DNA of 20,555 nt. Source: a virus. The position numbers and the translations under genes are program-made. This document shows, in pieces, positions 802-20,555 of this stretch; positions within the stretch are counted from its first letter, which is position 1, and each line of letters begins with the position of its first letter. The notes under the pieces are model-generated. The model had not been told where the DNA came from, made no database searches, and worked only from the letters and a program-made list of their open reading frames with translations. The DNA lies in IMG/VR virus record IMGVR_UViG_3300022758_000417; one strand, given 5' to 3'.

Positions 802-815
802 AGTTCGCAATCGCA

Positions 816-841
816 GGCCGCACTCAGCGTGCGGCCTTTTT
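816..841 (+). terminator. Rho-independent terminator after the SSB gene.
   Basis: 8-bp GC stem ggccgcac / gtgcggcc with loop tcagc, followed by TTTTT, then the RBS of the next gene. Confidence 0.75.
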
Positions 842-853
842 CAGGAGGAAGCC

Positions 854-1162: not shown

Positions 1163-1175
1163 AAGGAGGTGCGCC

Positions 1176-1580
1176 ATGCCTTCGAAAAACGGCGTTTTCT
1201 ACGAGCTGAAGGAATCGCCTTACTCTTTTATGTACGGCGATTGTACGTTCTTCTTCTCGTCTAGGAAGCATCTTTCCAGTTTCATGGACAAGATCTGCGT
1301 TCGAACGCAATGGTTGGACGACAGCATGGAAAAGCGTTTCCACTTCTACGTCAACATGCAGCTGGTCGCCGCGTTCCAACTGTACTTCACGGTGGAGACC
1401 AGGGGGTGCTACGTCAGATTGGAAAACGGTGAGGAGCTGACATGCAGAGAGAACCTAAGATTAAATGGACTGAAAGCCAGCGTTCGCGCCTCAACTCCGC
1501 AGTCCGAAAGTACAACAACGCCATTCGACGGGCTATGCGGGCGAATCCCGCCAACGCCCAGTTCATGCCCGAGCCGGTAA
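1176..1580 (+). CDS. Transcriptional regulator, phi29 p4-like (early/late switch protein).
   Basis: RBS AAAGGAGG then ATG at 1176. N-terminus MPSKNGVFYELKESPYSFMYGDCTFFFSS...FMDK matches phi29 p4 (MPKTQRGIYHNLKESEYVASNTDVTFFFSS...FLDG). ...YFTVETRGCYVRLENGEELTCRE matches ...FYSEVEKRGFHAWLKGDNATWRE. The last 139 nt overlap the terminal-protein gene in another frame. Confidence 0.7.
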   Translation: MPSKNGVFYELKESPYSFMYGDCTFFFSSRKHLSSFMDKICVRTQWLDDSMEKRFHFYVNMQLVAAFQLYFTVETRGCYVRLENGEELTCRENLRLNGLKASVRASTPQSESTTTPFDGLCGRIPPTPSSCPSR

Positions 1581-2182: not shown

Positions 2183-2183
2183 T

Positions 2184-3872: not shown

Positions 3873-4225
3873 GCAGGTACCAACCGAGCTTGCGCGAGCT
3901 GGCCATGGAGCCGGACGAGGACAAGCGGCTCGAGATGGCCGCGCGAATCGACGAGGACGCGGCGGAACTCGACGACCGCTGGGACGAGCGCGAGGGCTGG
4001 CGAAACGAGCGCGAGGAGTGGGACGCGGAGCGCGACCGCCTGAACGCGGAGCGAGACGAGGCGATCGCCGAGCGCGACCGCTACCGCGAGGAGCGCGACG
4101 AGTCGCGCCGCAAGTACGCCGACCGGTTCTTCGCCGTCGAAGGCCAGACGCTGCTCCATGCGAACGAGGTAGGCGAGGAAGTTCGGCGCGAGCCGATCCG
4201 CTCAGCCGACGAGATCTGGGATTAA
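3869..4225 (+). CDS. Head scaffolding protein (gp7-like).
   Basis: RBS AAAGGAG then ATG at 3869. ATGA overlap with the polymerase stop. 118 aa, extremely Glu/Arg/Asp-rich with coiled-coil character. Lies immediately upstream of the capsid gene. Confidence 0.7.
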   Translation: MSRYQPSLRELAMEPDEDKRLEMAARIDEDAAELDDRWDEREGWRNEREEWDAERDRLNAERDEAIAERDRYREERDESRRKYADRFFAVEGQTLLHANEVGEEVRREPIRSADEIWD

Positions 4226-4234
4226 GGAGATATT

Positions 4235-5716: not shown

Positions 5717-5729
5717 CCTATGTTCTGCC

Positions 5730-5760
5730 GAGGGCGGGATTCGTTTCCCGCCCTCCTTTC
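5730..5760 (+). terminator. Hairpin, likely a terminator or attenuator, after the capsid gene.
   Basis: 10-bp stem gagggcggga / tcccgccctc with loop ttcgtt, followed by CTTTCC (a weak U-tract), then the RBS GAAGGAGG of the next gene. Confidence 0.5.
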
Positions 5761-5775
5761 CGAAGGAGGTGAGAA

Positions 5776-7401: not shown

Positions 7402-7415
7402 GAAAGGAGGCATGC

Positions 7416-8408
7416 ATGAACCCTATCCAATCCACTACCACCCCGTACGGGCTTCCCTGGGGCAACATGCCCAAGAACGCGCACAAATCCGCTCGCGAGC
7501 TGGACAACGCGGCCATGAACTCGCAAACGATGTTCCTCTGGCAGATGCGCCTTTACGAGCTGGCGATGAGCGTCTTCGAATGGGAGAACCTGCCGCAGGG
7601 CATCAACGAGCGCCAAATCGAATGGTGGCTCCTTCGCGACGGTTTCTGCGTGTTCCTGCATGACGAGGATATCGCGCTCGACCCTGTTCAGCGCAGCCCG
7701 GAGGGCTACGCGATCATGCAGTGCATGTTGGAGGGCAACTTCGACATCTACTCGCAGCCGGTGAACCGCATAGCCTACTCGGTGATGGGGGTCAACATCC
7801 CGCTCACCATCGAGAACTCCGTCATAATCTGGAATTCGAACTTGCGCGTGCCTACCTGGTTCGCGCTCAACATGTACGCCAAGAAGCTGTGGGCGATAGA
7901 CCGGGCGATCGATGTGAACGTGTACCAGCAGAAGACCCCGCGCGTGGTGAAATGCTCGCAGAAGCAGCGCCTGAGCTTCGAGAACATGATGGCGCAGGTG
8001 GACGAGTACAAGCCCCTTATCATGACGGACAAGGACTTCGACCTCGAATCCATCGACATCCTCGACAACTCGTCTCCGTACGTCGCCGAACAGCTCTACG
8101 AGCTGAAGGACAAGTACTGGAAGGAAGCGCTCGGATTCTTAGGGATAGCCAGCTCCGAGTCCAAATCGGAGCGCGTCATCGTGGACGAGATGCTGGCAAG
8201 CCTCGGCGGCACCGAGGCGCAGCGGCTCTGCCGCCTCGAATCCCGGCAGTTCGCGTGCAAGCAGATAAACAAGATCTTCGGACTCGACGTGGACGTGCAT
8301 TTCCGAGTGTCGGAGAAGCGCCAAGAAGAGCAGTGGGCTATCGCCGACGGCGAGTTCAATGAAAGCGAGTACGCCGAGGAGAACGGGATCGAGGTGAACG
8401 GAGAATGA
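7416..8408 (+). CDS. Head-tail connector / portal (phi29 gp10-like).
   Basis: RBS AAAGGAGG at 7403-7410, ATG at 7416 (MNPIQS). LAMSVFEWENLPQGINERQ matches phi29 gp10 (LAYQLFEWENLPPTINPSF). NMYAKKLWAIDRAIDVN matches NMYAQKMARAMDVSI. The ORF-track extension back to 7251 overlaps the tail-knob gene and was rejected. Confidence 0.8.
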   Translation: MNPIQSTTTPYGLPWGNMPKNAHKSARELDNAAMNSQTMFLWQMRLYELAMSVFEWENLPQGINERQIEWWLLRDGFCVFLHDEDIALDPVQRSPEGYAIMQCMLEGNFDIYSQPVNRIAYSVMGVNIPLTIENSVIIWNSNLRVPTWFALNMYAKKLWAIDRAIDVNVYQQKTPRVVKCSQKQRLSFENMMAQVDEYKPLIMTDKDFDLESIDILDNSSPYVAEQLYELKDKYWKEALGFLGIASSESKSERVIVDEMLASLGGTEAQRLCRLESRQFACKQINKIFGLDVDVHFRVSEKRQEEQWAIADGEFNESEYAEENGIEVNGE

Positions 8409-9079
8409 GCAAGTACAGCTTGCAGCTTCGCTGGCTGGTCGAACAGACGCTTGCAAACGGCGGCTGGGACTTGCACGAGGACAACTGGAACAACGCCTAC
8501 GAGAAGCTGGGCTTGGCCGACTACCCGATCTTCGACGAAGCGTACCGAGAGACGCTGAACAACAAGATAATACGCCATTACTGGATGTACGAGATAGGTT
8601 CCGAAACCGCAGGTCTTTTCCGCTGGAACCTGCGCGACGCTATGTTCATGGTCATGCCGTACTACAACCAGATGTACCTGTCGGAGATCACGGCGAAGGG
8701 GATCCAGCCCCTCATCGACCACACGCGGACGATCACGGAGGACGCGACCGGCACCGCCTCCAACAACGCGAACACCAGCGCGACTTCGACCAGCAACGCG
8801 CAGGACATTTTCAGCGACACGCCTATGAGCGCGCTCAACTTCGACAACATCAAGGCGGGCAACTACGCGTCCACGGCGGACTTCACCGACGCTTCCACGA
8901 CGGATTCCGGCAAGTCGGATTCGAGCGGCAGCTACGACAACAAGCTGTCGCGCACGGAGACCGGGCACGACAAGGCGGAAGCCGAACTGCTCTTGATTTG
9001 GCGAGACACGTTCGTTAATATAGACCGTGACGTAGTGGAAGACAAAGCGCTGCGCGAATGCTTCATGACGATATGGTAA
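8405..9079 (+). CDS. Lower collar / tail tube protein candidate (by position, gp11-like).
   Basis: ATGA overlap with the connector stop. 224 aa with a Ser/Thr/Asn-rich linker. Assigned by synteny (connector, lower collar, appendage). I cannot verify sequence similarity from memory. Confidence 0.45.
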   Translation: MSKYSLQLRWLVEQTLANGGWDLHEDNWNNAYEKLGLADYPIFDEAYRETLNNKIIRHYWMYEIGSETAGLFRWNLRDAMFMVMPYYNQMYLSEITAKGIQPLIDHTRTITEDATGTASNNANTSATSTSNAQDIFSDTPMSALNFDNIKAGNYASTADFTDASTTDSGKSDSSGSYDNKLSRTETGHDKAEAELLLIWRDTFVNIDRDVVEDKALRECFMTIW

Positions 9080-9089
9080 GGAGGAGCGC

Positions 9090-9548
9090 ATGAACCAGCC
9101 GACACCGGATGTAGCGCCGTTTCGCTACTACGTGCAAATGGTTCTGCCGGCCGTCTACGGTGACGAGCTGAGCTATTACGAGGTGCTTGCCAAGGTGACC
9201 GAGAAGCTGAACGAGGTCATCGAGAATTTGAACAAACAGGGTCAGAACGTGAACGACCTGATGGTGTTCTACAACCAGCTGAAAGCGCAGGTGGACGCGC
9301 TTGAAAACGAGGTCGATGCTATCAAGAACGGCGAGTACGTGCATCTGTACCTGGATTCGATCATAAACTGGATCGACGCGAACCTGCAGTGCCTTGTGGC
9401 TAGGATCGTCAAGTTCGTGTGCTTCGGGCTTGGCGACGACGGCCATTTCAAGGCGTACATCCCCGCAACCTGGCAGTTCCTGCAGTTCGATACCGGAATG
9501 AACCCGGACGACTCGACCACGTACGGCCACCTCATCATCAAATGGTAA
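9090..9548 (+). CDS. Hypothetical structural protein of 152 aa. Possibly a neck or tail-fibre associated coiled-coil protein.
   Basis: RBS AAGGAGG then ATG at 9090. The central region looks like a heptad coiled coil (KLNEVIENLNKQGQNVNDLMVFYNQLKAQVDALENEVDAIKN). Lies between the collar and the tail fibre. Confidence 0.55.
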   Translation: MNQPTPDVAPFRYYVQMVLPAVYGDELSYYEVLAKVTEKLNEVIENLNKQGQNVNDLMVFYNQLKAQVDALENEVDAIKNGEYVHLYLDSIINWIDANLQCLVARIVKFVCFGLGDDGHFKAYIPATWQFLQFDTGMNPDDSTTYGHLIIKW

Positions 9549-9559
9549 AGGAGAAGAAC

Positions 9560-11038
9560 ATGGCAGAATCCACGAAGAACATGACGGTGGGCGCGGGAAG
9601 CGCGAGCGCGAGCGTCACCGCCACCGTGACCGACCAGATGCCGGGCGTTCCCTGCCCGACGACTCCGGGTTACACCTACACCGGCATGCGCTACGTGCCG
9701 GTGTTCGCAGACCCTCCGGAGTGGTCTAGCGCGAACAGCTACGAGCCGCTGGAGATCGTGATCCACGAGGGAAATTCCTACACGTCCAAGACGTTCGTTC
9801 CCGTCGGCATCGACATCTCGAATTCCACTTATTGGGCGCTGACCGGCAATTACAACGCCCAGGTCGAACAGTACCGCCAGCAGGTGCAGCAGTTCGACGG
9901 CCGGATCACGAAGAACACGGAGGACATAGCGGTCAATACCGCCGATATAGCGAATCTTTCCGAGAAAACGTCTATGTTGGCGCATTCGAAGGACTTCAAA
10001 GGCTCCAATATCCTGTATGTGACCGATTCATGGGGCGTTAACACGACAGGAGTCACCAAGCCGTATGTGAACAGCCTCGGAGACATTCTAGGGGCTAACC
10101 TGACGAGCCTCTCGGTGGGAAGCACCGGATATATATCCGGCGGCACGAACAACTTCGTCAACCGGTTGAAAGCATGGGCGGATGCCAATCCCGGCAAAAC
10201 CGGGGATATCGATTATGTGATGGTTTGCGGGTCGTCGAACGACTATCCTCACACTACCAGCGAGATCGCCGCCGCAGTCAACCAATTCGTTTCATACGCT
10301 CTTTCCGCCTTCCCCAACGCTCAAGTGGTGGTTATCCCCCAGTTCGCGTCCAATAAGCCGGCATACGCATCGGTGGATACCGCGGACGACAACCTATGGC
10401 GGAAAGTCAATGCGGCTGCGACGGTGGCGTACTACAATAATCTTTGGCATAGGACTCGCTTCATCCCTAATACCTTTTACGCGTTGGCGTTCACGCCCGC
10501 GTCGTTCATGTCCTCCGATAACATCCATCTCACGCAATCAGGGCATAATTACCTGGCCAAATGGCTTTCGGAGGCGTTGTTGGGGGTGAGCAATTCATCT
10601 AACATCACCTACACCCTTCCCCAAGAGACCACGTTCACGACGCATGATAACTCCGGTGCGGTCGTGGAAACGATAACGACTACCACGTCGGTTTCCGTCA
10701 CCCTTTCGATCGTGAACGGCGTATTGTGCGGTTCGGTGTCTTTCGGGTTCCAACCGACTAAACCCGCGGTTTCCATCAGGATGAACACACCGGCGTTCGT
10801 GCTGCTCAACACCCAGGTTGGTTCTTCATGGGGGACGGTGGTGTCGGTGGGGGTCGACAATGCGTTCAATCGATCTAGCATTCGCTTCGGAGATATGAAG
10901 GGGAAGACGTTGCCCGCTAGCGGCGCGAACGCATGGATCGAGTTCGGAGCTTTGACCCCTTACATGAAAAGCGGCAACACGTTGATAGTATCGGCCAACA
11001 TTTCCATTCCCGTTTCCTACTTCGTGATGGGCAACTGA
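9560..11038 (+). CDS. Tail fibre / appendage (receptor-binding) protein with an SGNH (GDSL) hydrolase domain.
   Basis: RBS AAGGAGAAG then ATG at 9560. The ORF-track start at 9419 lies inside the upstream gene. The N-terminal anchor motif TGMRYVPVFADPPEWSSANSYEPLEIVIHEGNSYTSKTFVPVGIDISNSTYWALTGNYNAQVEQY is the widespread phage tail-fibre N-terminal motif. A coiled-coil neck follows. SGNH blocks are present: I ILYVTDSWG, III VMVCGSSNDY, V DNIHLTQSGHNYLA. Confidence 0.75.
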   Translation: MAESTKNMTVGAGSASASVTATVTDQMPGVPCPTTPGYTYTGMRYVPVFADPPEWSSANSYEPLEIVIHEGNSYTSKTFVPVGIDISNSTYWALTGNYNAQVEQYRQQVQQFDGRITKNTEDIAVNTADIANLSEKTSMLAHSKDFKGSNILYVTDSWGVNTTGVTKPYVNSLGDILGANLTSLSVGSTGYISGGTNNFVNRLKAWADANPGKTGDIDYVMVCGSSNDYPHTTSEIAAAVNQFVSYALSAFPNAQVVVIPQFASNKPAYASVDTADDNLWRKVNAAATVAYYNNLWHRTRFIPNTFYALAFTPASFMSSDNIHLTQSGHNYLAKWLSEALLGVSNSSNITYTLPQETTFTTHDNSGAVVETITTTTSVSVTLSIVNGVLCGSVSFGFQPTKPAVSIRMNTPAFVLLNTQVGSSWGTVVSVGVDNAFNRSSIRFGDMKGKTLPASGANAWIEFGALTPYMKSGNTLIVSANISIPVSYFVMGN

Positions 11039-11403
11039 TGGCGACCGAACCGACAGGCGGGGGGAACCCCAACTTCTTCAAGACCTTCAAGGGGGCGTAC
11101 GTCCACGCCCCCTCCCCCGAAGCTATGTTCACCAGCGAGCGGGTCATGCTTTCCTGCGTGAACGACGTGCAGTTCCAAGGCGATTGCATGATCATGAACT
11201 ACACGCCGGGCGCGACGCTCACGACGCTGCCTCCGGAATGCCGCCCCTCTACCGAAGTGCGGATTCCCGTGATCGTCGATACTAACGTGGACGTGCTTTC
11301 GATTCAGACGAACGGGGCGGTTTCCCTGCATGCGTCCACCGACGGCATGGTTTATCTCGCGGGGGCTTCGTTCAACATAAGCGCCAATTGGTATTCTAAC
11401 TAG
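11038..11403 (+). CDS. Hypothetical protein of 121 aa. Could be a tail-fibre tip or assembly partner.
   Basis: ATGA overlap with the fibre-gene stop (tga at 11036-38, atg at 11038-40). Gly/Thr/Asn-rich and looks beta-rich. No homolog recognised. Confidence 0.5.
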   Translation: MATEPTGGGNPNFFKTFKGAYVHAPSPEAMFTSERVMLSCVNDVQFQGDCMIMNYTPGATLTTLPPECRPSTEVRIPVIVDTNVDVLSIQTNGAVSLHASTDGMVYLAGASFNISANWYSN

Positions 11404-11415
11404 GAGGAATCAAAC

Positions 11416-11595
11416 ATGGATGTTAACGATGTTGTCACTCTTATCGGTAGTCTGGGCTTCCCTATTGTAGCTTGCGTGGGCATGTTTTACCTGTACAATC
11501 GTACTCTTAAGGACTTTACTAGCACACTTAACGACATTGCGAGCGAGATTAAGGAGATACGGGAAGAACTTAAAGAGCTGATCAAGAATGCTTAG
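11416..11595 (+). CDS. Holin-like small membrane protein (59 aa, one transmembrane segment).
   Basis: Too short for the ORF track. RBS AGGAGGAA, spacer of 6, ATG at 11416. Translation MDVNDVVTLIGSLGFPIVACVGMFYLYNRTLKDFTSTLNDIASEIKEIREELKELIKNA has a hydrophobic core and a charged C-tail. Overlaps the endolysin start by 8 nt. Clearly AT-richer than its neighbours. Confidence 0.55.
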   Translation: MDVNDVVTLIGSLGFPIVACVGMFYLYNRTLKDFTSTLNDIASEIKEIREELKELIKNA

Positions 11596-12262
11596 GGGCA
11601 TCGACATATCCAACTGGCAAGCCGGGTTGGATGCGGATAGCGTGTTCCCGAACGTCGACTTCGTCATCTGCAAGGCGACGGAAGGGGTCGGGTTCGTCGA
11701 CGGCTATTGCGACAGCTGGGTGCAATGGTGCCGCGCTCACGGAAAGCCCTGGGGATTCTACCACTTCGCGAACTCCAACGATCCCGTGAAAGAGGCTGTC
11801 CATTTCATAGACAACACCTCTAACTACTTCGGCGAAGGTATTCCGGTGCTTGACTGGGAGGGCGACCAATCGGTTGACTGGGTCAACGAGTTCGTGAAGA
11901 TCGTCCACGACCAGACCGGCATCTGGCCATGGATCTACGCCAACCCCTGGCGCTTCAACCAGGGAGGCGTGGAGCCTGACTGCATGCGATGGATCGCGAG
12001 CTACCCGGACGTGCTGCGCCCGGGACTCGACTACGACCCCGGCGAGCCTCCGGAGACGGACGGGCTTGTGGGGTGCTGGCAGTACGCGTCGGACGGCCAG
12101 GTGCCCGGATACGCGGGCAACCTGGACGTGAATCACTTCTTCGGAAGCGTCGGCGCGTGGATGGCTTACGCGGGTGTCCCGTCTTCGGGACAACCTGACC
12201 CGTCGCCTTCGCAGTCTGTTTTGGAGAACGATAGATTCCGCGTGACAATTCAAGAGAAGTAA
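11588..12262 (+). CDS. Endolysin, GH25 muramidase (lysozyme).
   Basis: N-terminus MLRGIDISNWQAGLD...VDFVICKATEGVGFVDGY...WGFYHFAN is the classic GH25 (Cpl-1-type) signature. Stop TAA at 12260-12262. Confidence 0.85.
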   Translation: MLRGIDISNWQAGLDADSVFPNVDFVICKATEGVGFVDGYCDSWVQWCRAHGKPWGFYHFANSNDPVKEAVHFIDNTSNYFGEGIPVLDWEGDQSVDWVNEFVKIVHDQTGIWPWIYANPWRFNQGGVEPDCMRWIASYPDVLRPGLDYDPGEPPETDGLVGCWQYASDGQVPGYAGNLDVNHFFGSVGAWMAYAGVPSSGQPDPSPSQSVLENDRFRVTIQEK

Positions 12263-12452
12263 TGTATGATGGTCATGCGCCGGAAAGCAAGCTATCTTCT
12301 GCGTCTGTGGGGCACCCGGTGAAACGGGCACGGGCGCATACGGAGACAAGCCCCCTCTGTGATAGTCTTTTCGGTTAGCGCCCTTTGACTTAGCCCCTGT
12401 CGCTTGGACATCCATGATGGCAGGGGCTTCCAAGTTCAAGGGATGATAAGTC
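12263..12452 (+). ncRNA. Candidate structured RNA (possible packaging pRNA) in the 202-nt non-coding gap upstream of the packaging ATPase.
   Basis: This is the longest non-coding gap in an otherwise tightly packed module. Complementary segments: atgcgcc 12275-81 with ggcgcat 12333-39, enclosing hairpin cccg-gtgaaa-cggg 12316-29. agcccctg 12392-99 pairs with caggggct 12421-28. tgactta 12386-92 pairs with taagtca 12446-52. All phi29-like phages need a pRNA. The call is speculative. Confidence 0.25.
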
Positions 12453-12463
12453 AAAGGAGGAAC

Positions 12464-13168
12464 GTGGCTAAATACTGGGACATATCGAAAACTCTTTCTT
12501 ATAATTGCCTCTTCAATTTCATCTACGGAATCCGAGGCGCGGGCAAGACCTACACGGGACTCCAGCACTACGTCAAGCGCTACCTGCGCACGGGGCGGCG
12601 CTTCATGTACCTGCGGCGCACGGAGGAGGAGCTGAAGAACCTCACCACGCGCAAAGACGGTCGTCTGTTCAACCATGTGCAAGTCGAGTTCCCAGGTCAC
12701 GCCCTGTGGGCAGAATCGAACATCCTGCATATCGACAAGGAGATATGCGGCTACGCGCAAGCGCTGTCAACGGCGCGCAAGCTCAAGTCCGATGCGCTGG
12801 ACAACGTGGACACTATCCTGTTCGACGAGTTCGTCATCGACAAGGGTTTCCAAACGTACCTTCCCGACGAGGTGACGGCGTTCTTGGAGCTTTACGAAAC
12901 CATCGCGCGCCCAGGCTCTAGAGACTACGACGTGACGTGCATGTTCTGGGGAAACGCTGTATCTAGCGCGAACCCATACATGGATTACTTCGGCCTCGAG
13001 CTTCCTTACAAAACCGACGTTTGGAGGCGCGGCGAGTTTTTTGACGCAGATGGTGGCACCTCCCGAACTGGTCGAGGCGAAGAAGGGAACGCGTTTCTAC
13101 AAGGCCATCGAGGGCAGCTCGTATGCTGCGTACGCCGCCGAGAACAAGTGGCTTCGCGACAACCCTAA
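12464..13168 (+). CDS. DNA packaging ATPase (phi29 gp16-like), N-terminal part. The reading frame breaks at a T6 run at 13037-13042.
   Basis: RBS AAAGGAGG at 12453-60, GTG at 12464. The alternative ATG at 12443 lacks an RBS. LSYNCLFNFIYGIRGAGKTYTG (Walker A) matches gp16 (LSYDRILNFVIGARGIGKSYAM). RFMYLRRTEEEL matches QFIYVRRYKPEL. LDNVDTILFDEFVIDKGFQTYLPDEVTAFLELYETIARP (Walker B) matches YPNVSTIVFDEFIREKDNSNYIPNEVSALLNLMDTVFRN. Similarity continues in another frame after about 13040. Confidence 0.8.
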   Translation: MAKYWDISKTLSYNCLFNFIYGIRGAGKTYTGLQHYVKRYLRTGRRFMYLRRTEEELKNLTTRKDGRLFNHVQVEFPGHALWAESNILHIDKEICGYAQALSTARKLKSDALDNVDTILFDEFVIDKGFQTYLPDEVTAFLELYETIARPGSRDYDVTCMFWGNAVSSANPYMDYFGLELPYKTDVWRRGEFFDADGGTSRTGRGEEGNAFLQGHRGQLVCCVRRREQVASRQP

Positions 13169-13475
13169 GTTCATCGCGAGGAAGGGCAAGAATGCCGAAT
13201 ACCAGTTCACGCTCCTTTACTACGACGATGCTATCGGCATATGGCGCGACAACCGAAACGGTTGCTATTACGTATCGGAAGACGTTGACCGCCAATGCCG
13301 CCACGTGTTCGCCGCCACGACGGAAGACCATGAGCCGAACACTCTGCTGCTCAAAGGTTTCAAATCCTCGCCCCATCTGGCTAACTTGAAGAAGGCTTAC
13401 GACATGGGGTGCGTGCGGTACGAGTCCATGAAGCTCAACAACTGGTTTCGGGATATAGTTAGGATGGGATTATGA
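13041..13475 (+). CDS. DNA packaging ATPase, C-terminal part, in the +1 frame relative to the N-terminal part.
   Basis: PPELVEAKKGTRFYKAIEGSSY...KNAEYQFTLLYYDDAIGIWRDNRNGCYYVSED...NTLLLKGFKSSPHLANLKKAYDMGCVRYESMKLNNWFRDIV aligns with the gp16 C-terminus (SLDFSSERRKTRFGRLIDGTEYG...KFVFSIVYNGFTLGVWVDVNQGLMYIDT...NMMLITNYKNNYHLRKLASAFMNGYLRFDNQVIRNIAYELF). This frame is open from 12936. The first in-frame ATG is at 13050. Confidence 0.7.
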   Translation: MTQMVAPPELVEAKKGTRFYKAIEGSSYAAYAAENKWLRDNPKFIARKGKNAEYQFTLLYYDDAIGIWRDNRNGCYYVSEDVDRQCRHVFAATTEDHEPNTLLLKGFKSSPHLANLKKAYDMGCVRYESMKLNNWFRDIVRMGL

Positions 13476-13476
13476 T
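13455..13476 (+). repeat. Direct repeat DR1, AT[A/C]GTTAGGATGGGATT[A/G]TGAT, at the 3' end of the ATPase gene.
   Basis: 22 nt matching 13786-13807 with 2 mismatches. The core GTTAGGATGGGATT is identical in both. Each copy encodes ...VRMGL*, followed by an overlapping ATG. Confidence 0.8.
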
Positions 13477-13720
13477 CATCACGACTAAGAATGGCGACAT
13501 GGTAGATACAGTGCAGATTATCGAAGAAAACGTATATACCATAGATGATGTTAAATACGCGGTGGAAACTGACATGTATATTGCTGCAACGGTTCAGATA
13601 CGAATTTGCGATACTGGAAAGAAACAGCTGGAAGTTTCCGACCCGGAAATTGGCAAAGAAGCGCAGTACCATCTACGACAGTTCATCAAGTGCATGAAGA
13701 AGTTGGGAAGGTATTACTGA
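13472..13720 (+). CDS. Hypothetical 82-aa acidic protein in an AT-rich insert (a moron; possible anti-defence or host-takeover gene).
   Basis: ATGA overlap with the ATPase stop. GC is about 40% by hand count over the first 60 nt, against about 60% in the flanks. Bracketed by direct repeats at 13455-76 and 13786-807. Confidence 0.55.
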   Translation: MIITTKNGDMVDTVQIIEENVYTIDDVKYAVETDMYIAATVQIRICDTGKKQLEVSDPEIGKEAQYHLRQFIKCMKKLGRYY

Positions 13721-13806
13721 TGGCTGAACCTGTTATCATCAACGCGACCAAGCAAGGCGGCGTTGAGAACGCTTACGTAGGAACCATCGTTAGGATGGGA
13801 TTGTGA
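13720..13806 (+). CDS. 28-aa ORF (MAEPVIINATKQGGVENAYVGTIVRMGL). It duplicates an internal segment of the downstream hydrolase and is probably a recombination remnant rather than a gene.
   Basis: ATGA overlaps at both ends. 66 nt resemble 14282-14347 of the next gene, which encodes VIIISATKKGGVENAYIGTI. It ends in the DR2 copy of ...IVRMGL*. Confidence 0.3.
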   Translation: MAEPVIINATKQGGVENAYVGTIVRMGL

Positions 13807-13807
13807 T
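13786..13807 (+). repeat. Direct repeat DR2, partner of 13455-13476.
   Basis: See DR1. The spacing between the cores is 331 nt. Confidence 0.8.
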
Positions 13808-14978
13808 GGCGCGGGAGATAGTGCCGCAGCTGGGCGGTAGAAATTGCGTTTACACCTATATGGGCTGGTCGCTGATAACCGCGCCCGATTCGCTACAGTA
13901 CAAGCTTCGGGCGGATGCGGGTGAGAACTATGATGCAGAGGGATTCGCCATCATAGAAGGAAGATACGTGATAGCGTGCACCGAGGCGTTCGGGGGTGTC
14001 GGAGACTACGTGGATTTCCAGCTGGACACGGGGTTGATATTGAATTGCATCATCGGAGACGTTAAATCGTCGGGAGACCCTAATTACAGCGAATGGGGGC
14101 ATCTTTACCCGCCGAATTCGATTAGCGTGATAGAATCGGTTGTGGAGTACTCGAAATGGTATCCTAGTCATGCTAACCCCGGAACGCCGGGATGCAAGCC
14201 GGAATGGGCTGGAAACGTCGTTCTCGCGTTGAACTACGGAAACTACTGGGAAATAGATCCGCCGGGAGGAATCGATATGGCGAGCGTGATCATAATCAGC
14301 GCCACTAAGAAAGGCGGCGTTGAGAACGCCTACATTGGGACTATAGGCAACGACGGCTACATCTACTTCAACGATATAGACTTCTACAGATTCAAGAATG
14401 TCGGCACGTGGGAAGACAACGTATACGTTCTGAACCGCACTCGTCGCTCTTGGACGAAGACGACGATGTTCACGAAGATCAGCGCGCAGAATCTGAACTC
14501 AGGCTCCGGCAGCGTGGCACCCGGAGGATCGGGCGTGGAGGGCGCGTGCCTGTGGGCAGTGGGAATCGCCGACGACAACAGCCATGGCTACGACCAGCCG
14601 ACGCGGGACGGCGGCGTGGACTTCGACTGCTCCAGCCTGGTGTCATGGGCTTTCCGCGAGAACGGATGGGACGTTCCGTTCCCGTCGCCTTCGACCTACA
14701 ACATGTCAAGCGTGTTCACGGGGTTAGGGTTCAAACGGTACAACGGAAACCCCGCCGCGTCGGACTTGGTGCGCGGTGATATCGTTCTGTTCGAGGGCGA
14801 CATATCGGCGGGAACCGGGCACGTGGAGCTGTACCTCGGAAACGGGATGCTCGTGGGCGCTCATATCAACGAGTTCGGGGGCGTGGCCGGAGGACAGCCC
14901 GGCGACCAGACCGGTAACGAGATATCGACCGGCGGGTATTATAGGAGCTGGAACTGCTGGCTCAGATGGGAGGGTTAG
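13806..14978 (+). CDS. Tail-associated peptidoglycan hydrolase (a gp13 functional analogue). It has a C-terminal NlpC/P60-type cysteine peptidase domain and an N-terminal second putative lytic domain.
   Basis: ATG at 13806 (GTG at 13803 is also in frame). The C-terminus has GVDFDCSSLVSWAF (catalytic Cys), DLVRGDIVLFE and GHVELYLGNGMLVGAHINE (catalytic His), which is the typical NlpC/P60 layout. The N-terminal YVIACTEAFGGVGDYVDFQLDTG...CIIGDVK segment is of unknown type. Confidence 0.7.
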   Translation: MAREIVPQLGGRNCVYTYMGWSLITAPDSLQYKLRADAGENYDAEGFAIIEGRYVIACTEAFGGVGDYVDFQLDTGLILNCIIGDVKSSGDPNYSEWGHLYPPNSISVIESVVEYSKWYPSHANPGTPGCKPEWAGNVVLALNYGNYWEIDPPGGIDMASVIIISATKKGGVENAYIGTIGNDGYIYFNDIDFYRFKNVGTWEDNVYVLNRTRRSWTKTTMFTKISAQNLNSGSGSVAPGGSGVEGACLWAVGIADDNSHGYDQPTRDGGVDFDCSSLVSWAFRENGWDVPFPSPSTYNMSSVFTGLGFKRYNGNPAASDLVRGDIVLFEGDISAGTGHVELYLGNGMLVGAHINEFGGVAGGQPGDQTGNEISTGGYYRSWNCWLRWEG

Positions 14979-14979
14979 G

Positions 14980-15060
14980 ATGCTGTCGCATTATATTGCA
15001 CTTGTAGTGGGCACTATGTTAGGTATCGCTATTATGTGTCTGGTGAGCGGTAATAAATGA
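14980..15060 (+). CDS. Tiny hydrophobic peptide (26 aa, MLSHYIALVVGTMLGIAIMCLVSGNK).
   Basis: SD-like GGGAGGG overlaps the upstream stop, then ATG at 14980. A single predicted transmembrane helix. Its stop TGA is the first half of the TGAAC-N3-GTTCA palindrome. Confidence 0.35.
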   Translation: MLSHYIALVVGTMLGIAIMCLVSGNK

Positions 15061-15076
15061 ACGTTGTTCATTAATT
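15058..15076 (+). promoter_or_regulatory. Palindromic operator-like site TGAACgttGTTCA followed by TTAATT (copy 1).
   Basis: Perfect 5+5 inverted repeat with a 3-nt spacer. Repeated at 15398-15416 with an 18/19-nt match. Confidence 0.5.
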
Positions 15077-15158
15077 CGAATTATCGCAAAAATTATCACT
15101 TGCTTGTTCTATAATACAGTTGTAGGGATAAGTCGAAGGGTGAATGGAGGAATTGACA

Positions 15159-15307
15159 TGTTTCTAGGGCTTCCGGGATTTGCGTGGTTCGTGATCGGCG
15201 TTATAGTTGTGGCAGTGCTGGTTACCGTGGCGAATTGGTATATCATGTACTGCGTGTTCGACTGGGCAGTGCATCATGTGAAGCATGTTTGGTTGGATGA
15301 AGACTGA
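15159..15307 (+). CDS. Small membrane protein (49 aa, MFLGLPGFAWFVIGVIVVAVLVTVANWYIMYCVFDWAVHHVKHVWLDED).
   Basis: SD GGAGG, spacer of 7, ATG at 15159. The ORF-track start at 15104 lacks an RBS. One transmembrane helix and an acidic C-terminus. TATAAT lies at 15110-15115 upstream. Confidence 0.5.
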
Positions 15308-15397
15308 ATGAAGATGCATGAGGAACAAGTAACAGCGTGTCTGATTATGGCGGTCATCTTGGCCGCCTTACTCATTGTCAAACTGAGCGTGCATTGA
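15308..15397 (+). CDS. Tiny hydrophobic peptide (29 aa, MKMHEEQVTACLIMAVILAALLIVKLSVH). Low confidence.
   Basis: ATG directly after the upstream stop. No clear SD. The stop is followed immediately by the second TGAAC-N3-GTTCA-TTAATT site. Same peptide-plus-palindrome arrangement as 14980-15076. Confidence 0.25.
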   Translation: MKMHEEQVTACLIMAVILAALLIVKLSVH

Positions 15398-15416
15398 TGA
15401 ACGATGTTCATTAATT
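15398..15416 (+). promoter_or_regulatory. Palindromic operator-like site TGAACgatGTTCA followed by TTAATT (copy 2).
   Basis: See copy 1. Lies 31 nt upstream of the -35 of the consensus promoter. Confidence 0.5.
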
Positions 15417-15446
15417 GCATGATTGAGATGACAATTGGAAAATGAT

Positions 15447-15475
15447 TTGACATGAGGTGATGAAGCGTGTATAAT
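15447..15475 (+). promoter_or_regulatory. Perfect sigma70 consensus promoter, TTGACA-N17-TATAAT, reading rightwards.
   Basis: TTGACA at 15447-52, a 17-nt spacer, TATAAT at 15470-75, with TG immediately upstream of the -10. It is followed by GGG, so 15469-15478 (GTATAATGGG) equals the contig's terminal 10-mer. The promoter fires towards the inverted-repeat junction at 15519. Confidence 0.7.
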
Positions 15476-15518
15476 GGGGCTACAAAATCCACACGACAGA
15501 TGAATATGGGGGGAAAGA

Positions 15519-16321
15519 GGGTGTGGGTGGTCACGCCCGCCATGTTGTACTTCGTGGACTGGTACTGGAACAGGTCGGACATGTACTGGAACTGCGTGGC
15601 GATGTCGACGGCGTTGTCCTTGCCGATTGCGGGAATCTCCACCGAGCCGATGTAGCCGTTGAGGAGGCACTTGGCCAGGAAGTAGCGCATGACGTAGTAC
15701 TCGTCCGTGTTGGCGCTGGTGTAGAGAGACTCGATGATGCGCGCGATCAGGTCGCTAACGCCCGTCCAGGACAGGAACGCCTGGCGCAGCTGCTGGGAGG
15801 AGACGGTCGTCTTGTAGAACTTCTGGAAGTTCATACGGTGGAACGCGGTGCGCACGTCGGGAAGCTCGCGCTTGGCGAACGTGTCCTCCGCGCCCTCGGG
15901 GTAGAAGCCGTGAACGTCGGCGAGGTTGACGAAGATTTCCTCGATCGTGTCCCCGAACTCGAGGTACCCGCGCTTGAACACCGCCCAGGGGTTGCGGTAC
16001 AGCTTCGATGTCACGATGGTGAGGCCGATGCGGTTCACCAGCGCGTTGAGGAACGCGTTTCGCGCGGGCTGGTAGCTGGTCAGGTACTCCCCCGATGGCA
16101 TGGATCTCGTCGGTGGTTCCGGCAAGCTCCACGTAGGCGCGGTTGTTCGAGTCGTAAGTCGCCGGGATCCCGCGAGCCGCGAGCGCGGCCGCTACCTCCG
16201 GGGTCTCGTTGATGGTCGCTTCGACCGCCTTCTGCGCGGCCGTCTCGCGCGCTGCCGTATCGCCGGCCTTCATGACGATCGGCGAATCGGCGGCTTTCAT
16301 ATTAGGTTGCTTCACTGCCAT
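15519..16321 (-). pseudogene. Truncated, frameshifted copy of the capsid gene in the right repeat arm.
   Basis: Minus-strand translation is identical to capsid residues 1-77. A C5 run at 16089-16093 (G4 at 4463-4466 in the left copy) then shifts the frame. The copy ends at the junction, corresponding to capsid codon ~268. Confidence 0.85.
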
Positions 16322-16330
16322 AATATCTCC

Positions 16331-16687
16331 TTAATCCCAGATCTCGTCGGCTGAGCGGATCGGCTCGCGCCGAACTTCCTCGCCTACCTCGTTCGCATGG
16401 AGCAGCGTCTGGCCTTCGACGGCGAAGAACCGGTCGGCGTACTTGCGGCGCGACTCGTCGCGCTCCTCGCGGTAGCGGTCGCGCTCGGCGATCGCCTCGT
16501 CTCGCTCCGCGTTCAGGCGGTCGCGCTCCGCGTCCCACTCCTCGCGCTCGTTTCGCCAGCCCTCGCGCTCGTCCCAGCGGTCGTCGAGTTCCGCCGCGTC
16601 CTCGTCGATTCGCGCGGCCATCTCGAGCCGCTTGTCCTCGTCCGGCTCCATGGCCAGCTCGCGCAAGCTCGGTTGGTACCTGCTCAT
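16331..16687 (-). CDS. Scaffolding protein, second copy in the repeat.
   Basis: Identical translation to 3869..4225. Confidence 0.7.
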   Translation of the reverse strand: MSRYQPSLRELAMEPDEDKRLEMAARIDEDAAELDDRWDEREGWRNEREEWDAERDRLNAERDEAIAERDRYREERDESRRKYADRFFAVEGQTLLHANEVGEEVRREPIRSADEIWD

Positions 16688-18372
16688 AAGCCTGTCTCCT
16701 TTCTGATGACAAAATCACCTTCGTATAGTATAATACCGCCTTTTACGGTCTTGGAATAGAGTTTTCCCGGAAATTTCGCGCCGACATGGAAATTGTCCCA
16801 CGTGACGTGAGGATGGCACGATTCTGGCAGCCCCGCGCAATGCACGGTGAGCTTGCCGCCCTCGTCCTCGATATAGGTCTTCGGGCGCAGGAACCTGGCG
16901 CGCTGAAACGTGCTTTCGAGCTTCCACGCGCCCAATCTGTAATCGTCCACGTCAAGCTCTTCCGGGATCTCGGTTCCGGTCAAGTGGAGCGAATCGGTGT
17001 CGGCGTAGAGGAAACGATCCTTCACCTTCTGGGCTGAGCGTATCGTCTTGTTCCTCGCCCATGCCGTGATGAAAGCCCCGGCGGGAAGGTACATTCCTTC
17101 TGTCTGCTCCGGGTCGAGCAGCGGGTAGCGCACTATGCCGTCCTCGCACATGACCGGCCGGCGGCTCCGTTTGACCGGATGCGTCGCCATCTTGCCGTAC
17201 GAGGAGTTCATCTTGAGCTTCGCCATGTACCGCTTGCCCGCGTTGCCCTCCTCGGCCGCATGCACCTTATCCTCGTTGGCCGCCATTATGAAATCGTAGA
17301 ATAGCTTGTTCGATGCCTTGAACTTCCAGCCCTTGCCGTAGCGGATGGAATAGATGTTGTAGTGGTCTTTCAAAAGCGCCAAGTCGACGCTCGTCAATAC
17401 CAGCGTCTGCTCTCCTTTGGAATCGACTACGTATTCGGTCGGCATGAAGCTCAAATTGCCTTTGAGCTGCAAGCAAGGGATGAAACCGGGCTTGAGCTTG
17501 AAGTCGACGGTCACGGTCTGTATGTAGAGCGGGTATCGAGGATCCGGGACGTACTCCCCTTCGAAGAGCATCGGATCGCCGTACGGCAGTATCTCGCCTT
17601 CGACTCCGGCCATGACGGAAGGGTAGAGGCTGTTAACGTCCAGGACGATACCCTCCCCGATGTCGCGCCCTTTGAAATCGGGGTTGACGTAGGTGAAGCC
17701 GCCCTTGTAGCACGGGCGTATCTCAGCGTCGTAGTCGCACACTGGAAACGTCCGTCTGAACCCCTTCTCGCCTCCTATCGTCTTCTTGTACTCGGCGATG
17801 GCGTTCGATCCCGCCGTGATCCTGGTCGCGCCCTGGTCGATCAGCTCGCCCAAGGCGCGCGCCACGATCCTGACATCTGCCGATATGTAGTCTATCTCCT
17901 GCTGCGTGAGAACGTGATCGGGATCGCGATGCTCCGTGTAGTCTATCTCGAGCTTCGCGTCCTCTTCCTCGAAGCCGAACGCGCGCGGAATCTTCGCGAC
18001 CGGCAAGCTGATGATCTTCAGCGAATCGCAGAATTCGATATAATGCCCTCTGCTGAAATAGAGCTTGATGGTGTAGAACTGGTTCATGTCGCTGATCAGC
18101 GTCGTGAACCGGTAGGGCGCTTGCTCTCCGTGGCTGGGAATCCATTCCCATCCCGCGTCGAGCAGATGCGATATGATGAACTTCCCGTCGAATTTCAGGT
18201 TGTGGAAGTACACGCGAGCGTCCAGGGCGCGCTCGCACCATTCCACGAACCCTTCGATGGAGGTTCCGGTCGTTATATCGTAGGTTTTCAAGGTGCAAGC
18301 AGCCCACGCCCAAACTCGCGTTCGGGTCAGGTCGTCTGCCGTCGTTTCGAAATCAGCCGTGAAGCACTGCAT
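16684..18372 (-). CDS. Protein-primed family-B DNA polymerase, second copy.
   Basis: Identical translation to 2184..3872. Confidence 0.9.
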   Translation of the reverse strand: MQCFTADFETTADDLTRTRVWAWAACTLKTYDITTGTSIEGFVEWCERALDARVYFHNLKFDGKFIISHLLDAGWEWIPSHGEQAPYRFTTLISDMNQFYTIKLYFSRGHYIEFCDSLKIISLPVAKIPRAFGFEEEDAKLEIDYTEHRDPDHVLTQQEIDYISADVRIVARALGELIDQGATRITAGSNAIAEYKKTIGGEKGFRRTFPVCDYDAEIRPCYKGGFTYVNPDFKGRDIGEGIVLDVNSLYPSVMAGVEGEILPYGDPMLFEGEYVPDPRYPLYIQTVTVDFKLKPGFIPCLQLKGNLSFMPTEYVVDSKGEQTLVLTSVDLALLKDHYNIYSIRYGKGWKFKASNKLFYDFIMAANEDKVHAAEEGNAGKRYMAKLKMNSSYGKMATHPVKRSRRPVMCEDGIVRYPLLDPEQTEGMYLPAGAFITAWARNKTIRSAQKVKDRFLYADTDSLHLTGTEIPEELDVDDYRLGAWKLESTFQRARFLRPKTYIEDEGGKLTVHCAGLPESCHPHVTWDNFHVGAKFPGKLYSKTVKGGIILYEGDFVIRKETGL

Positions 18373-18373
18373 A

Positions 18374-19114
18374 TCATAGCTCAGCCCATCTGTCGAGGAT
18401 GTAGCCCATCTTGTCGGCGCGGTCTTCCGGCGCATAGATGTACTCGATGTTCAGAAGCTCGTCTCCGGACTCGAAGAACTCCATGAGCTTGCCCGCATTG
18501 GACTTCATCATGGATTCGATCTTCCTCGCGATCTGAGCTATAGCCGCATCGAACTCGGAGTAGCCGCCGAACACCGTGTCGAGGCCTTTGATATAGTTCT
18601 CGTAGTACCGGTTCAGCCTTTCGTAGGAACTCGTGGCGCTCAGCTCCTCGTAACGTTTGATGAAACGCTTGAGGGCGATGGGAGAGAAGTCTCGCGCGGT
18701 GCGCTTGTCGGGAAGCAGGTTGTTCTGCTGCAACGTTCCCATGCGCCCCAGGGTCTGGCCGTAGTCGATCCCCAGCTTCTTGCGCCTGAGCGACTTGCGC
18801 CGCTCGTTGACGGCTTTCGCGATCTGGAACTCCCGCACTTCGTAGCGCGTGGCGATCCCTCCCTCTCCGACGTTCGTCAAGTCCAAGGCTCCTTTGCGCG
18901 TAGCGCGCAGCAAGCGCGCGACCGTGTTGTTAAGCACGCGCGCGCTCTTGATCTCGGCTTTGACTTCCTTGTAGCTTACCGGCTCGGGCATGAACTGGGC
19001 GTTGGCGGGATTCGCCCGCATAGCCCGTCGAATGGCGTTGTTGTACTTTCGGACTGCGGAGTTGAGGCGCGAACGCTGGCTTTCAGTCCATTTAATCTTA
19101 GGTTCTCTCTGCAT
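18374..19114 (-). CDS. Terminal protein, second copy.
   Basis: Identical translation to 1442..2182. Confidence 0.75.
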   Translation of the reverse strand: MQREPKIKWTESQRSRLNSAVRKYNNAIRRAMRANPANAQFMPEPVSYKEVKAEIKSARVLNNTVARLLRATRKGALDLTNVGEGGIATRYEVREFQIAKAVNERRKSLRRKKLGIDYGQTLGRMGTLQQNNLLPDKRTARDFSPIALKRFIKRYEELSATSSYERLNRYYENYIKGLDTVFGGYSEFDAAIAQIARKIESMMKSNAGKLMEFFESGDELLNIEYIYAPEDRADKMGYILDRWAEL

Positions 19115-19380
19115 GTCAGCTCCTCACCGTTTTCCAATCTGACGTAGCACCCCCTGGTCTCCACCGTGAAGTACAGTTGGAACGCGGCGACCAGCTGCAT
19201 GTTGACGTAGAAGTGGAAACGCTTTTCCATGCTGTCGTCCAACCATTGCGTTCGAACGCAGATCTTGTCCATGAAACTGGAAAGATGCTTCCTAGACGAG
19301 AAGAAGAACGTACAATCGCCGTACATAAAAGAGTAAGGCGATTCCTTCAGCTCGTAGAAAACGCCGTTTTTCGAAGGCAT
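18976..19380 (-). CDS. p4-like transcriptional regulator, second copy.
   Basis: Identical translation to 1176..1580. Confidence 0.7.
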   Translation of the reverse strand: MPSKNGVFYELKESPYSFMYGDCTFFFSSRKHLSSFMDKICVRTQWLDDSMEKRFHFYVNMQLVAAFQLYFTVETRGCYVRLENGEELTCRENLRLNGLKASVRASTPQSESTTTPFDGLCGRIPPTPSSCPSR

Positions 19381-19393
19381 GGCGCACCTCCTT

Positions 19394-19702
19394 TCAATAA
19401 CGGTATTTGATATGCTTGGAAACCGTTTTCAACGCTTGCGAATGCATAACGAAGACGAGTCCGATATAATCGTCTATGACGTGGCGGCGCACAAGCTCTC
19501 GCAGGTCGTTTATGTCGTCCCGCTTCATATCGAACTTGTCGTCCTTGGTGAACATGTATTCGATGCGCCCGTTACGATGGCGCTTGAAAACGGCCACGCC
19601 TTGCGGGACGACGGCATGCGCCCATAGCTCTTTCTTCAACACCCTGTTCGACGAGTCCGCTACGAACTGCTCCATCAAATCCTTGTCTGCAAGCGACAAC
19701 AT
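19394..19702 (-). CDS. Hypothetical early protein, second copy.
   Basis: Identical translation to 854..1162. Confidence 0.6.
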   Translation of the reverse strand: MLSLADKDLMEQFVADSSNRVLKKELWAHAVVPQGVAVFKRHRNGRIEYMFTKDDKFDMKRDDINDLRELVRRHVIDDYIGLVFVMHSQALKTVSKHIKYRY

Positions 19703-19714
19703 GGCTTCCTCCTG

Positions 19715-19740
19715 AAAAAGGCCGCACGCTGAGTGCGGCC
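19715..19740 (-). terminator. Rho-independent terminator, second copy.
   Basis: Mirror image of 816..841. Confidence 0.7.
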
Positions 19741-19754
19741 TGCGATTGCGAACT

Positions 19755-20216
19755 TTAAGCGACTTCGAGGGTGAGCATCGTGCCGCGCTTGACCTTCACC
19801 TGCTTGACGACCACGTTGATAGGCTCCTCGTAGGTTGGCGCGCCGTAGACGGCGAACATCTTCTTGAGCGAACCCCACACGCCGTTCGACACGCACTGGT
19901 AGCTCTCGCCCTTGTCGTCGATGAGGACGATGCGCGGGGCTTGCTCCACGGTGCCGTCCTCGTCTGCGATTTCGATGATCTCGACGAACAGGTCTTTCAG
20001 CGCGATCTGCTTGTTGATGAAGTCGTCGATCTTGTGCGTCGGGTTGTTGGACGCGTTGTAGATCAGCTTCTTGGCATCCGCTCCAAGTTCCGGGTTCACC
20101 GAGCAGAACGTGTTGTCCTCGGGCTTGGCAAGCTCGGCGATGGCGTACGTGCGGGCAGGTGCGAGGTCGTTGACGGGCATTTCCTCGGCGATGGCGATGT
20201 CTTTGTTCTCAGTCAT
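19755..20216 (-). CDS. p5-like SSB, second copy.
   Basis: Identical translation to 340..801. Confidence 0.55.
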   Translation of the reverse strand: MTENKDIAIAEEMPVNDLAPARTYAIAELAKPEDNTFCSVNPELGADAKKLIYNASNNPTHKIDDFINKQIALKDLFVEIIEIADEDGTVEQAPRIVLIDDKGESYQCVSNGVWGSLKKMFAVYGAPTYEEPINVVVKQVKVKRGTMLTLEVA

Positions 20217-20241
20217 GGTTTTCTCCTTCTAGTCAGATGGT

Positions 20242-20505
20242 TTAAGCGTCGATGACGGTCGCGTTCTCAAGGAACGTTTCCACGGGCATGGAATAGGTCT
20301 TCTCCTCGCCTTCGACCCACTTGATCGTGCAGCCCTTGGGCAGCGCCACGCCGGCATCGCGGAAGGCGATACGGGCTTTGCGGGCGTTCATGTTGGTGTC
20401 CAGCACGACGTACTGGGCGACAGCGCGCACGCTGGGCGGGATTGAATCATCCAGTTCGTACGCGGTCAGCTCGAAACTCTTGAAAGTGCGGGTGATAGCA
20501 GCCAT
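20242..20505 (-). CDS. First early gene (p6-like?), second copy.
   Basis: Identical translation to 51..314. Confidence 0.5.
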   Translation of the reverse strand: MAAITRTFKSFELTAYELDDSIPPSVRAVAQYVVLDTNMNARKARIAFRDAGVALPKGCTIKWVEGEEKTYSMPVETFLENATVIDA

Positions 20506-20555
20506 AATGTAATCTCCTTTGATCGGTCGGCTTGCTTTGACGAATCCCATTATAC

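Follow-up and report, generated by a model that had tools for sequence, protein, structure and literature searches.

What can a perfect consensus promoter accomplish when it points at the end of a genome only ~65 nucleotides (nt) away? The question is raised by positions 15,447–15,475 of the viral record IMGVR_UViG_3300022758_000417, a contig of 20,555 nt that we call the window, where the plus strand reads TTGACA-N17-TATAAT. A first-pass annotation, made from the letters of the window, had described this element as a strong rightward promoter for genes now missing from the right end, with a -10 box embedded in the terminal sequence of the genome. Comparison with related contigs retains the promoter and changes its setting. 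We consider it quite likely that the promoter belongs to the inverted terminal repeat (ITR) of a φ29-like Eggerthella phage and faces the nearby end of the DNA, that a mirror copy stands at the left end, that the window is chimeric, and that its position 1 is internal to the genome.

The promoter scan returned 14 promoter-like matches in the window, and the site at 15,447–15,475 is the sole one to reach 12/12. The exact pattern TTGACA-N17-TATAAT occurs once in the window and in none of 100 dinucleotide-preserving shuffles, and its analytic expectation from base composition is ~0.0007–0.002 (the window is 57% GC), which bears out the perfect match claimed by the first-pass annotation. The relatives used for comparison comprise 35 IMG/VR contigs, found by a collar-protein search, and eight stretches from independent metagenome samples. 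Among 31 ITR copies, the -35 hexamer (15,447–15,452, plus strand) is TTGACA in 28 and the -10 hexamer (15,470–15,475, plus strand) is TATAAT in 29; the spacer is 17 nt long in 30 of them and takes 11 different sequences. Across 20 distinct ITR variants, the mean top-base frequency is 0.98 in the -35 box and 0.99 in the -10 box, compared with 0.69 in the spacer and 0.72 upstream. Because the hexamers are fixed and the 17-nt spacing is kept while the spacer sequence drifts, selection appears to act on this element as a promoter. By this signature, 15,447–15,475 is predicted to be a genuine sigma-70/sigma-A-type promoter that forms a fixed part of a ~185-base-pair (bp) ITR, and it is very probably a strong one that fires rightward, as had been proposed. 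The earlier assignment of a TG-extended -10 does not survive: the sequence is gcGTG-TATAAT, in which TG abuts the hexamer and does not form TGnTATAAT, the scan flags no TG, and the TGn extension is absent from the window promoter and from every relative's ITR copy compared. In the complete relative L006, the scan finds one 12/12 site on the minus strand, from 95 to 67, and another on the plus strand at 16,438–16,466, both directed outward. IMG/VR contains no copy of the window's exact promoter pattern. A spacer identical to that of the window occurs in L040, which is a right end and so supplies no left end.

In the relatives, the segment that carries the promoter stands at both contig ends in opposite orientation; the window holds the right copy only. 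Ten contigs have symmetric terminal inverted repeats of 180–235 bp that start from the first and last base, and the alignment places the repeat between GCCGCCTTACTC… (window position 15,362) and …GGGGGGAAAGAGGGTGTCAGATTTACTTTTATAC, with the outward-facing promoter inside it. Window positions 15,362–15,524 (plus strand) are the inner 163 nt of the ~185-bp right ITR, the same segment being inverted at both ends of these ten complete relatives, and the last ~22 nt of the repeat (CAGATTTACTTTTATACTACCC) are not in the window. All eight metagenome stretches stop 5–22 nt past a GGTGT motif that occupies 15,520–15,524 of the window, the longest tail being CAGATTTACTTTTATACTACCC; the contigs of many samples terminate within a few nt of …ACTTTTATAC(TACCC), and the alignment of L006 with the window reaches 17 nt short of the L006 end. 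The longest tail, …TACCC-3', is present in one contig (L037), with other contigs 3–5 nt shorter and a divergent tail, …TATCCC, in L017. Many of the 35 IMG/VR relatives measure 15.4–17 kilobases (kb) and keep the collar gene at a constant offset. Logan contigs of relatives, assembled at k=31, terminate at the inner ITR edge plus 30 nt, the pattern that a collapsed inverted repeat should leave. Judged by these ends, the true genome is linear, carries ~185-bp ITRs and terminates in …TACCC-3'. Since the relatives end ~22 nt past window position 15,524, the wild-type genome would end there as well and have no missing right-end genes for the promoter to drive. In intact genomes the predicted transcription start lies ~65 nt from the DNA end, giving a predicted run-off product of ~65 nt; in the window, 15,482–15,524 (plus strand) is the corresponding stretch, which holds the start of the predicted transcript and origin-proximal DNA. 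No open reading frame (ORF) with a stop codon exists in the ~65 nt downstream of the promoter in intact genomes, and the outward promoter has no gene to express because the end of the DNA is so close.

A few contigs depart from this pattern at their ends. No ITR is present at either contig end of the distant relative L036, which is uninformative here. L022, L028 and L017 run past the phage terminus into unrelated sequence; we considered L022 and L028 as products of the same chimeric event as the window and rejected the idea, as no match in the phage exists for their sequence beyond the terminus, and we take both for unrelated chimeras. Nextera transposase adapter sequence (CTGTCTCTTATACACATCT…) is found at the termini of the IMG/VR contigs L018, L026, L014 and L035.

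The identity of the phage follows from its closest isolate and from its genes. Over its unique part, the window shares 94% identity with Eggerthella phage LE1-1, a member of the Guelinviridae whose 15,977-bp record (MW679025) is flagged circular. Pfam identifies PF03175, the protein-primed family-B polymerase, together with PF05464, PF05894 and PF17427, and the products include a φ29 GP4-like late activator, the Gp16 encapsidation ATPase and a φ29-type SSB, a protein that binds single-stranded DNA; PHROGs and Pfam matches cover the major head protein, the upper and lower collar proteins (connector) and a tail protein. All genes lie on the plus strand. An ORF of 246 amino acids (aa) at 1442–2182, directly upstream of the polymerase gene as in φ29, has no Pfam or PHROG match and is the putative terminal-protein gene. 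On this gene content, the source genome is a φ29-like, protein-primed Eggerthella podovirus of the LE1-1 group. Position 1 of the window corresponds to LE1-1 position 371, and homology stops at ~15,403, the last base of the LE1-1 record; because it ends there, LE1-1 cannot explain the 116 nt that hold the promoter. That record (L001; positions 1–28 and 15,934–15,977) keeps only the inner ~30 nt of each ITR and ends mid-palindrome, about 155 nt of each ITR, the outward promoter included, being absent. Circular permutation, suggested by the circular flag, was rejected, given the fixed ends and ITRs of the relatives; the LE1-1 record looks like a linear genome with truncated ITRs.

How does the promoter relate to the first bases of the window? 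The 10-mer GTATAATGGG at 15,469–15,478 (plus strand), which consists of the -10 box with one G on its 5' side and three on its 3' side, is identical to positions 1–10, as first noticed in the first-pass annotation, and its reverse complement occupies 20,546–20,555. It had been taken for the terminal sequence of the genome. Position 1 is internal: in each of the 28 relatives with coverage of the site, 323–1030 nt separate its homolog from the left contig end. Upstream of it, the relatives have a conserved hairpin, AAAAGACCGGATTCCGGTCTTTT, with a U-rich tail, and then CAACCCGC or CACGGGC. Direct folding gives this hairpin -16.6 kcal/mol with z = -5.3, and a compensatory change distinguishes its two alleles; the terminator scan made no call for the hairpin. 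None of the 28 relatives has a TTGACA at the -35 position within the 75 nt that precede position 1. The contig start (1–10, plus strand) presents a -10-like TATAAT at 2–7 ahead of the first replication-operon gene (ATG at 51), which we read as a putative -35-less box placed just after the terminator; -35-less promoters are common in actinobacteria.

Identity of the two 10-mers turns out to be the exception. Both sites are present in 20 genomes, and in two of these, the window and L023, the ITR copy equals the internal one; the modal agreement is 8 of 10 positions, namely the TATAAT core and one or two G's. In most relatives the ITR site is TTATAATAGG, TTATAATGGG or GTATAATGAG; 17 of the 19 related genomes scored at both sites lack the exact 10-mer there, and L023 is the only one in which both sites agree fully. 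Absence of the 10-mer from this site in relatives is an outcome that the first-pass annotation had itself named as refuting, and it is largely what the relatives show. For a random 10-mer, the expected number of matches recomputes to ~0.02–0.04, in line with the earlier figure of about 0.04, and given the 10 TATAAT boxes in the unique part of the window the chance of sharing the four flanking G's is ~0.06 (9 x 0.29^4). As the identity is confined to 2 of 20 genomes, the shared 10-mer is best described as two -10 boxes with G-rich flanks, identical by chance in this lineage; among the readings that had been offered for it, coincidence is the best.

The window itself has the structure A (1–5035), B (5036–15,519) and the reverse complement of A (15,520–20,555). 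The boundary of the inverted repeat falls at 15,519/15,520, 41 nt past the 10-mer and within one base of the 40 nt first given. At the joint, GGTGT (15,520–15,524) is a microhomology found both in the wild-type terminus (AAAGAGGGTGTCAG) and in 5031–5035 read as the reverse complement: identity with the wild type continues to 15,524, the inverted arm begins at 15,520, and the two partners are AAAGAGGGTGT, followed by CAG…, and the reverse complement of …ACACC (5031–5035). The window is a chimeric contig: the right ITR breaks off 22 nt before the terminus and continues into inverted 1–5035. Within this contig the promoter would read across the junction and antisense to the duplicated arm, as had been stated. 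The inverted duplicate (15,520–20,555, minus strand) contains the first gene, the SSB gene, the genes for the GP4-like activator, the putative terminal protein and the DNA polymerase, a 118-aa ORF and the 5' part of the capsid gene; the 118-aa ORF, previously labelled scaffold, has no PHROG match. Strict identity of the arms does not hold, for a run of four G's at 4463–4466 on the left, in the intact capsid gene, corresponds to five at 16,090–16,094 on the right, and six relatives have four. Because the arms differ by this one G, they were not simply copied from one graph edge. An inverted joint with a 5-nt microhomology near a template end is typical of a strand-displacing polymerase that switches templates, and a self-primed fold-back strand, extended until its own 5' end was copied, would account for the perfect symmetry of the contig ends. 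The Gp16 ATPase gene (12,404–13,475) is split by a +1 frameshift at ~13,031–13,036, where the window has T6 and its closest relatives L032 and L023 have T5, reflecting either a sequencing error or a defective genome.

Other accounts of this contig have to be weighed against a chimera with an internal position 1. It is doubtful that the inverted duplication is a real defective genome, produced in infected cells when the phage polymerase switched templates, in which the promoter would read antisense into the arm in vivo. The 5-nt microhomology and the one-base difference between the arms, as if they were independent copies, would suit such a molecule, and φ29 polymerase switches templates in vivo, with subgenomic molecules as products (Murthy 1998, cited in PMC4974454). 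Set against this, the contig lacks ITRs at both ends and would be origin-less as assembled, it measures at least 20.5 kb, or about 125% of the genome length, its junction is found in none of the 35 IMG/VR and eight metagenome relatives, and its homopolymer indels, one of which breaks the essential ATPase gene, fit error-prone data. Moreover, amplification with φ29 polymerase is commonly reported to give inverted chimeras of the same type.

Still less probable is a scenario in which the 10-nt identity of the internal and ITR -10 boxes mediated a template switch or recombination that ended the contig at position 1, for instance by a circle-like joint of 15,468, the 10-mer and position 11. Another microhomology-mediated junction does occur in the window, so such a process is at work here; its distance from the 10-mer is no more than about 50 nt, and a graph that branches where the shared bases begin would break an edge at position 1. 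That junction, however, used GGTGT, the 10-mer match necessarily begins at base 1 since it was found that way, no joint mediated by the 10-mer occurs in IMG/VR, and the identity is limited to 2 of 20 genomes. The break is accounted for equally well by a single-nucleotide polymorphism (SNP) that separates co-occurring strains at position -1, where L007 has A, L017 has T and the others have C. The idea that the contig ends are trimmed and that the true terminus carries a full promoter copy, TTGACA included, directly upstream of gene 1 is correct in its first half, in that the contig ends are not genome ends: the contig starts on a bare -10 box and the relatives have further sequence upstream. 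Its second half is extremely improbable. In 28 of 28 relatives, that upstream sequence is the terminator hairpin followed by CAACCCGC or CACGGGC, with no TTGACA; the real left end lies 323–1030 nt further out than position 1, and the promoter copy of the left-end ITR points away from gene 1.

If the outward promoter has no gene to express, what is it for? In φ29-type origins, a CCC 3' end and about six unpaired terminal nt raise origin strength 30-fold (PMC4150772), and the template-strand end in the relatives is …CCC-3', which compares with that CCC optimum. Host RNA polymerase would fire toward the end and run off. It would copy the 5'-protein-linked strand, and its transcription bubble would release the 3' end of the opposite strand, the one that templates terminal-protein priming; the opened terminal base pairs would stimulate origin firing. 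Opening of the terminal base pairs for terminal-protein priming is the most likely single role, and one that we put forward tentatively. A short RNA product, or an interplay with the divergent inward promoter across the ATGAAC-N3-GTTCAT palindrome of the ITR, is less likely, and a role unrelated to transcription is a further alternative.

A structured or pRNA-like RNA is not supported. The proposal that the promoter makes a functional small RNA, either a miniature analogue of the φ29 packaging RNA (pRNA) or a regulatory RNA, draws on the φ29-type Gp16 ATPase and connector of the phage, on the φ29 pRNA gene, which is itself directed outward at 147–320 from the left end (PMC11476376), on outward units in the ITRs of other phages, about 143 nt long in Cp-1 and about 300 nt in asccφ28, and on the conservation of the stretch predicted to be transcribed. 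We regard it as improbable, given that only about 65 nt can be transcribed, compared with 120 nt for a minimal pRNA. The single-sequence fold of the outward region is no better than that of shuffles (z = +1.3), and the consensus fold reaches -0.15 kcal/mol with four pairs and no covariation. Rfam yields no match at the gathering threshold in the window, no pRNA match at E <= 1 in the complete relative L006, and none in Cp-1 or asccφ28; the longest complement of the outward transcript to a possible antisense target is 9 nt, which is chance level. For asccφ28, the published account reports no evidence of pRNA (PMC7823558). A last possibility is that the hexamers are conserved as sites for origin or terminal-region proteins, or as an AT-rich unwinding element, and merely resemble a promoter. 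TGACA(A/T) occurs three times in the ITR, symmetrically around the palindrome, and the entire outer ITR is conserved; even so, we judge this very unlikely, since exact hexamers with a fixed 17-nt spacing and a free spacer sequence are the classic promoter signature and unrelated phages have the same feature at the same place.

Several points weigh against this interpretation of the window and of a role of its outward ITR promoter in origin opening. The start near 15,482 is predicted from the position of the -10 box alone. The SNP branch at position -1 is no more than a candidate cause of the contig end at position 1, as is the 10-mer-mediated joint, which finds no support in IMG/VR. The putatively transcribed stretch at 15,482–15,524 has a conservation of 0.93, which an origin would be expected to show, yet a function of the RNA would be compatible with the same figure. 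No published case of origin melting by outward transcription was found for a protein-primed phage. Two +1 homopolymer indels, the fifth G of the right arm and the sixth T in Gp16, hint at noisy data or at a degenerate molecule. Finally, we prefer none of the possible origins of the inverted duplication (in vivo, during amplification or in assembly).

Further signals surround the inner edge of the ITR. The palindrome ATGAAC-GAT-GTTCAT (15,397–15,411) is the centre of a larger imperfect palindrome (15,374–15,435), belongs to a repeat family and is conserved in relatives; in the form ATGAAC-N3-GTTCAT it is flanked by ATTGTCA and TGACAAT and sits between two divergent -35 boxes. We propose it as a candidate operator for the φ29 GP4-like activator, encoded at 1176–1580. 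A second copy of ATGAAC-N3-GTTCAT (15,057–15,071) lies ~58 nt upstream of the start of a -35-less TATAAT (15,110–15,115) that precedes the last gene. TTGACA on the minus strand (15,376–15,381) lies at the ITR's inner edge; in intact genomes, the left-end copy of this box serves as the -35 of the first gene's inward promoter, and the matching -10 (TATATT) falls just beyond the ITR. The inward promoter of L006 (161–189, plus strand) matches the consensus at 11/12 with TGn, has its -35 at the ITR inner edge and stands ahead of a 52-aa first gene, and LE1-1 has the same layout at 9–37. A 29-aa hydrophobic ORF (MKMHEEQVTACLIMAVILAALLIVKLSVH) at 15,309–15,398 ends within the right ITR, and the ITR bases under its end, read on the opposite strand at the left end, are the -35 of the first promoter.

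Two regions vary strongly among these phages. Between the left ITR and the conserved terminator, the relatives carry a hypervariable cassette of small genes, ~150–850 nt long, with several unrelated alternatives (L006 181–460, L008 365–850 and L020 125–655, for example), in a region that lies entirely outside the window. Most relatives offer no nucleotide match to the tail or receptor-binding region at 9825–11,036, within the gene for an SGNH/GDSL-like protein (9560–11,038), a product for which no identical sequence is on record; the region looks like the usual variable host-range module. The extreme end of the genome, 5'-GGGTAGTATAAAAGTAAATCTGACACCCTCTTTCCCCCC (the L037 tail; L006 1–45), carries AAAGTAA and a C-rich tract and resembles the Cp-1 end, AAAGCATGTACTCCCCCACCCC (Cp-1 1–45, L045). 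The φ29 end is AAAGTAAGCCCCCACCC. AAAGTAA with a C-rich tract may be a shared origin motif of genome ends.

The analysis removes a false lead: no operon is missing from the right end, and the genome does not terminate in the 10-mer. LE1-1 is the only isolate record of a phage group that is abundant in the human gut, and that record is flagged circular and lacks the outward promoter. What emerges is a promoter, perfect and invariant, that points at a DNA end 65 nt away, with a mirror copy at the other end and parallels in two unrelated phages with long ITRs. It poses the question of what purpose outward ITR transcription serves in protein-primed replication or packaging, and a culturable host, E. 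lenta DSM 2243, is available. We also entertain, as a speculative extension, that outward consensus promoters in long ITRs are a shared module of protein-primed podoviruses that acts through end melting or through a minimal packaging RNA derived from the end. In its melting form, run-off transcription would license terminal-protein priming and stand in for the φ29 p6-type opening of the origin; if true, such a module would couple host transcription to the function of the genome end.

The known systems differ in how closely they resemble this arrangement. The A1/pRNA unit of φ29 (RF00044) is also directed outward near a genome end, in a phage with a Gp16 ATPase, a connector, a GP4 activator and a protein-primed polymerase; unlike the Eggerthella element, it exists at the left end only, outside a 6-bp ITR, and makes a highly structured RNA of 174 nt (120 minimal). 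The template-switch products of φ29-type polymerases, namely the subgenomic molecules made in vivo (Murthy et al. 1998) and the inverted chimeras of multiple displacement amplification, resemble the window in that two segments meet in inverted orientation over a short microhomology near a linear template's end, whereas the window contig lacks true termini. Cp-1 (Z47794; Martín, López and García 1996) is, like the Eggerthella phage, a protein-primed φ29-like podovirus with a long ITR (236 bp). Its record contains an outward promoter in the ITR at both ends (minus-strand -35 at 172–177 and -10 at 150–155, mirrored at 19,166–19,193) and an inward promoter whose -35 (222–227) lies inside the ITR edge and whose -10 (245–250) lies outside, just as here. 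The Cp-1 outward promoter reads TTGACA-N16-TGaTATAAT and so differs by its 16-nt spacer and its TGn, and its start is about 143 nt from the end instead of about 65 nt. Cp-1 and the Eggerthella phage have no sequence homology, and a Firmicute host stands against an actinobacterium. Cp-1 is said to make a pRNA-like small RNA; Rfam finds none at the Cp-1 ends, and the fold of its outward transcript (z = -0.9) is no better than chance. At the ends of asccφ28, Av-1 and 44AHJD, Rfam likewise returns no pRNA and no other credible family. In asccφ28 (EU438902), a terminal-protein phage with a 577-bp ITR, the outward putative promoter P1 lies within the repeat and an inward promoter lies nearer its edge, as in the Eggerthella phage; there, about 300 nt are transcribed and an annotated terminator, T1, precedes the end, in contrast to the predicted run-off without a terminator here. 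Outward ITR promoters are thus a kind of element already annotated in Cp-1 and asccφ28, of which the Eggerthella promoter is the terminator-less form with the shortest run to the genome end.

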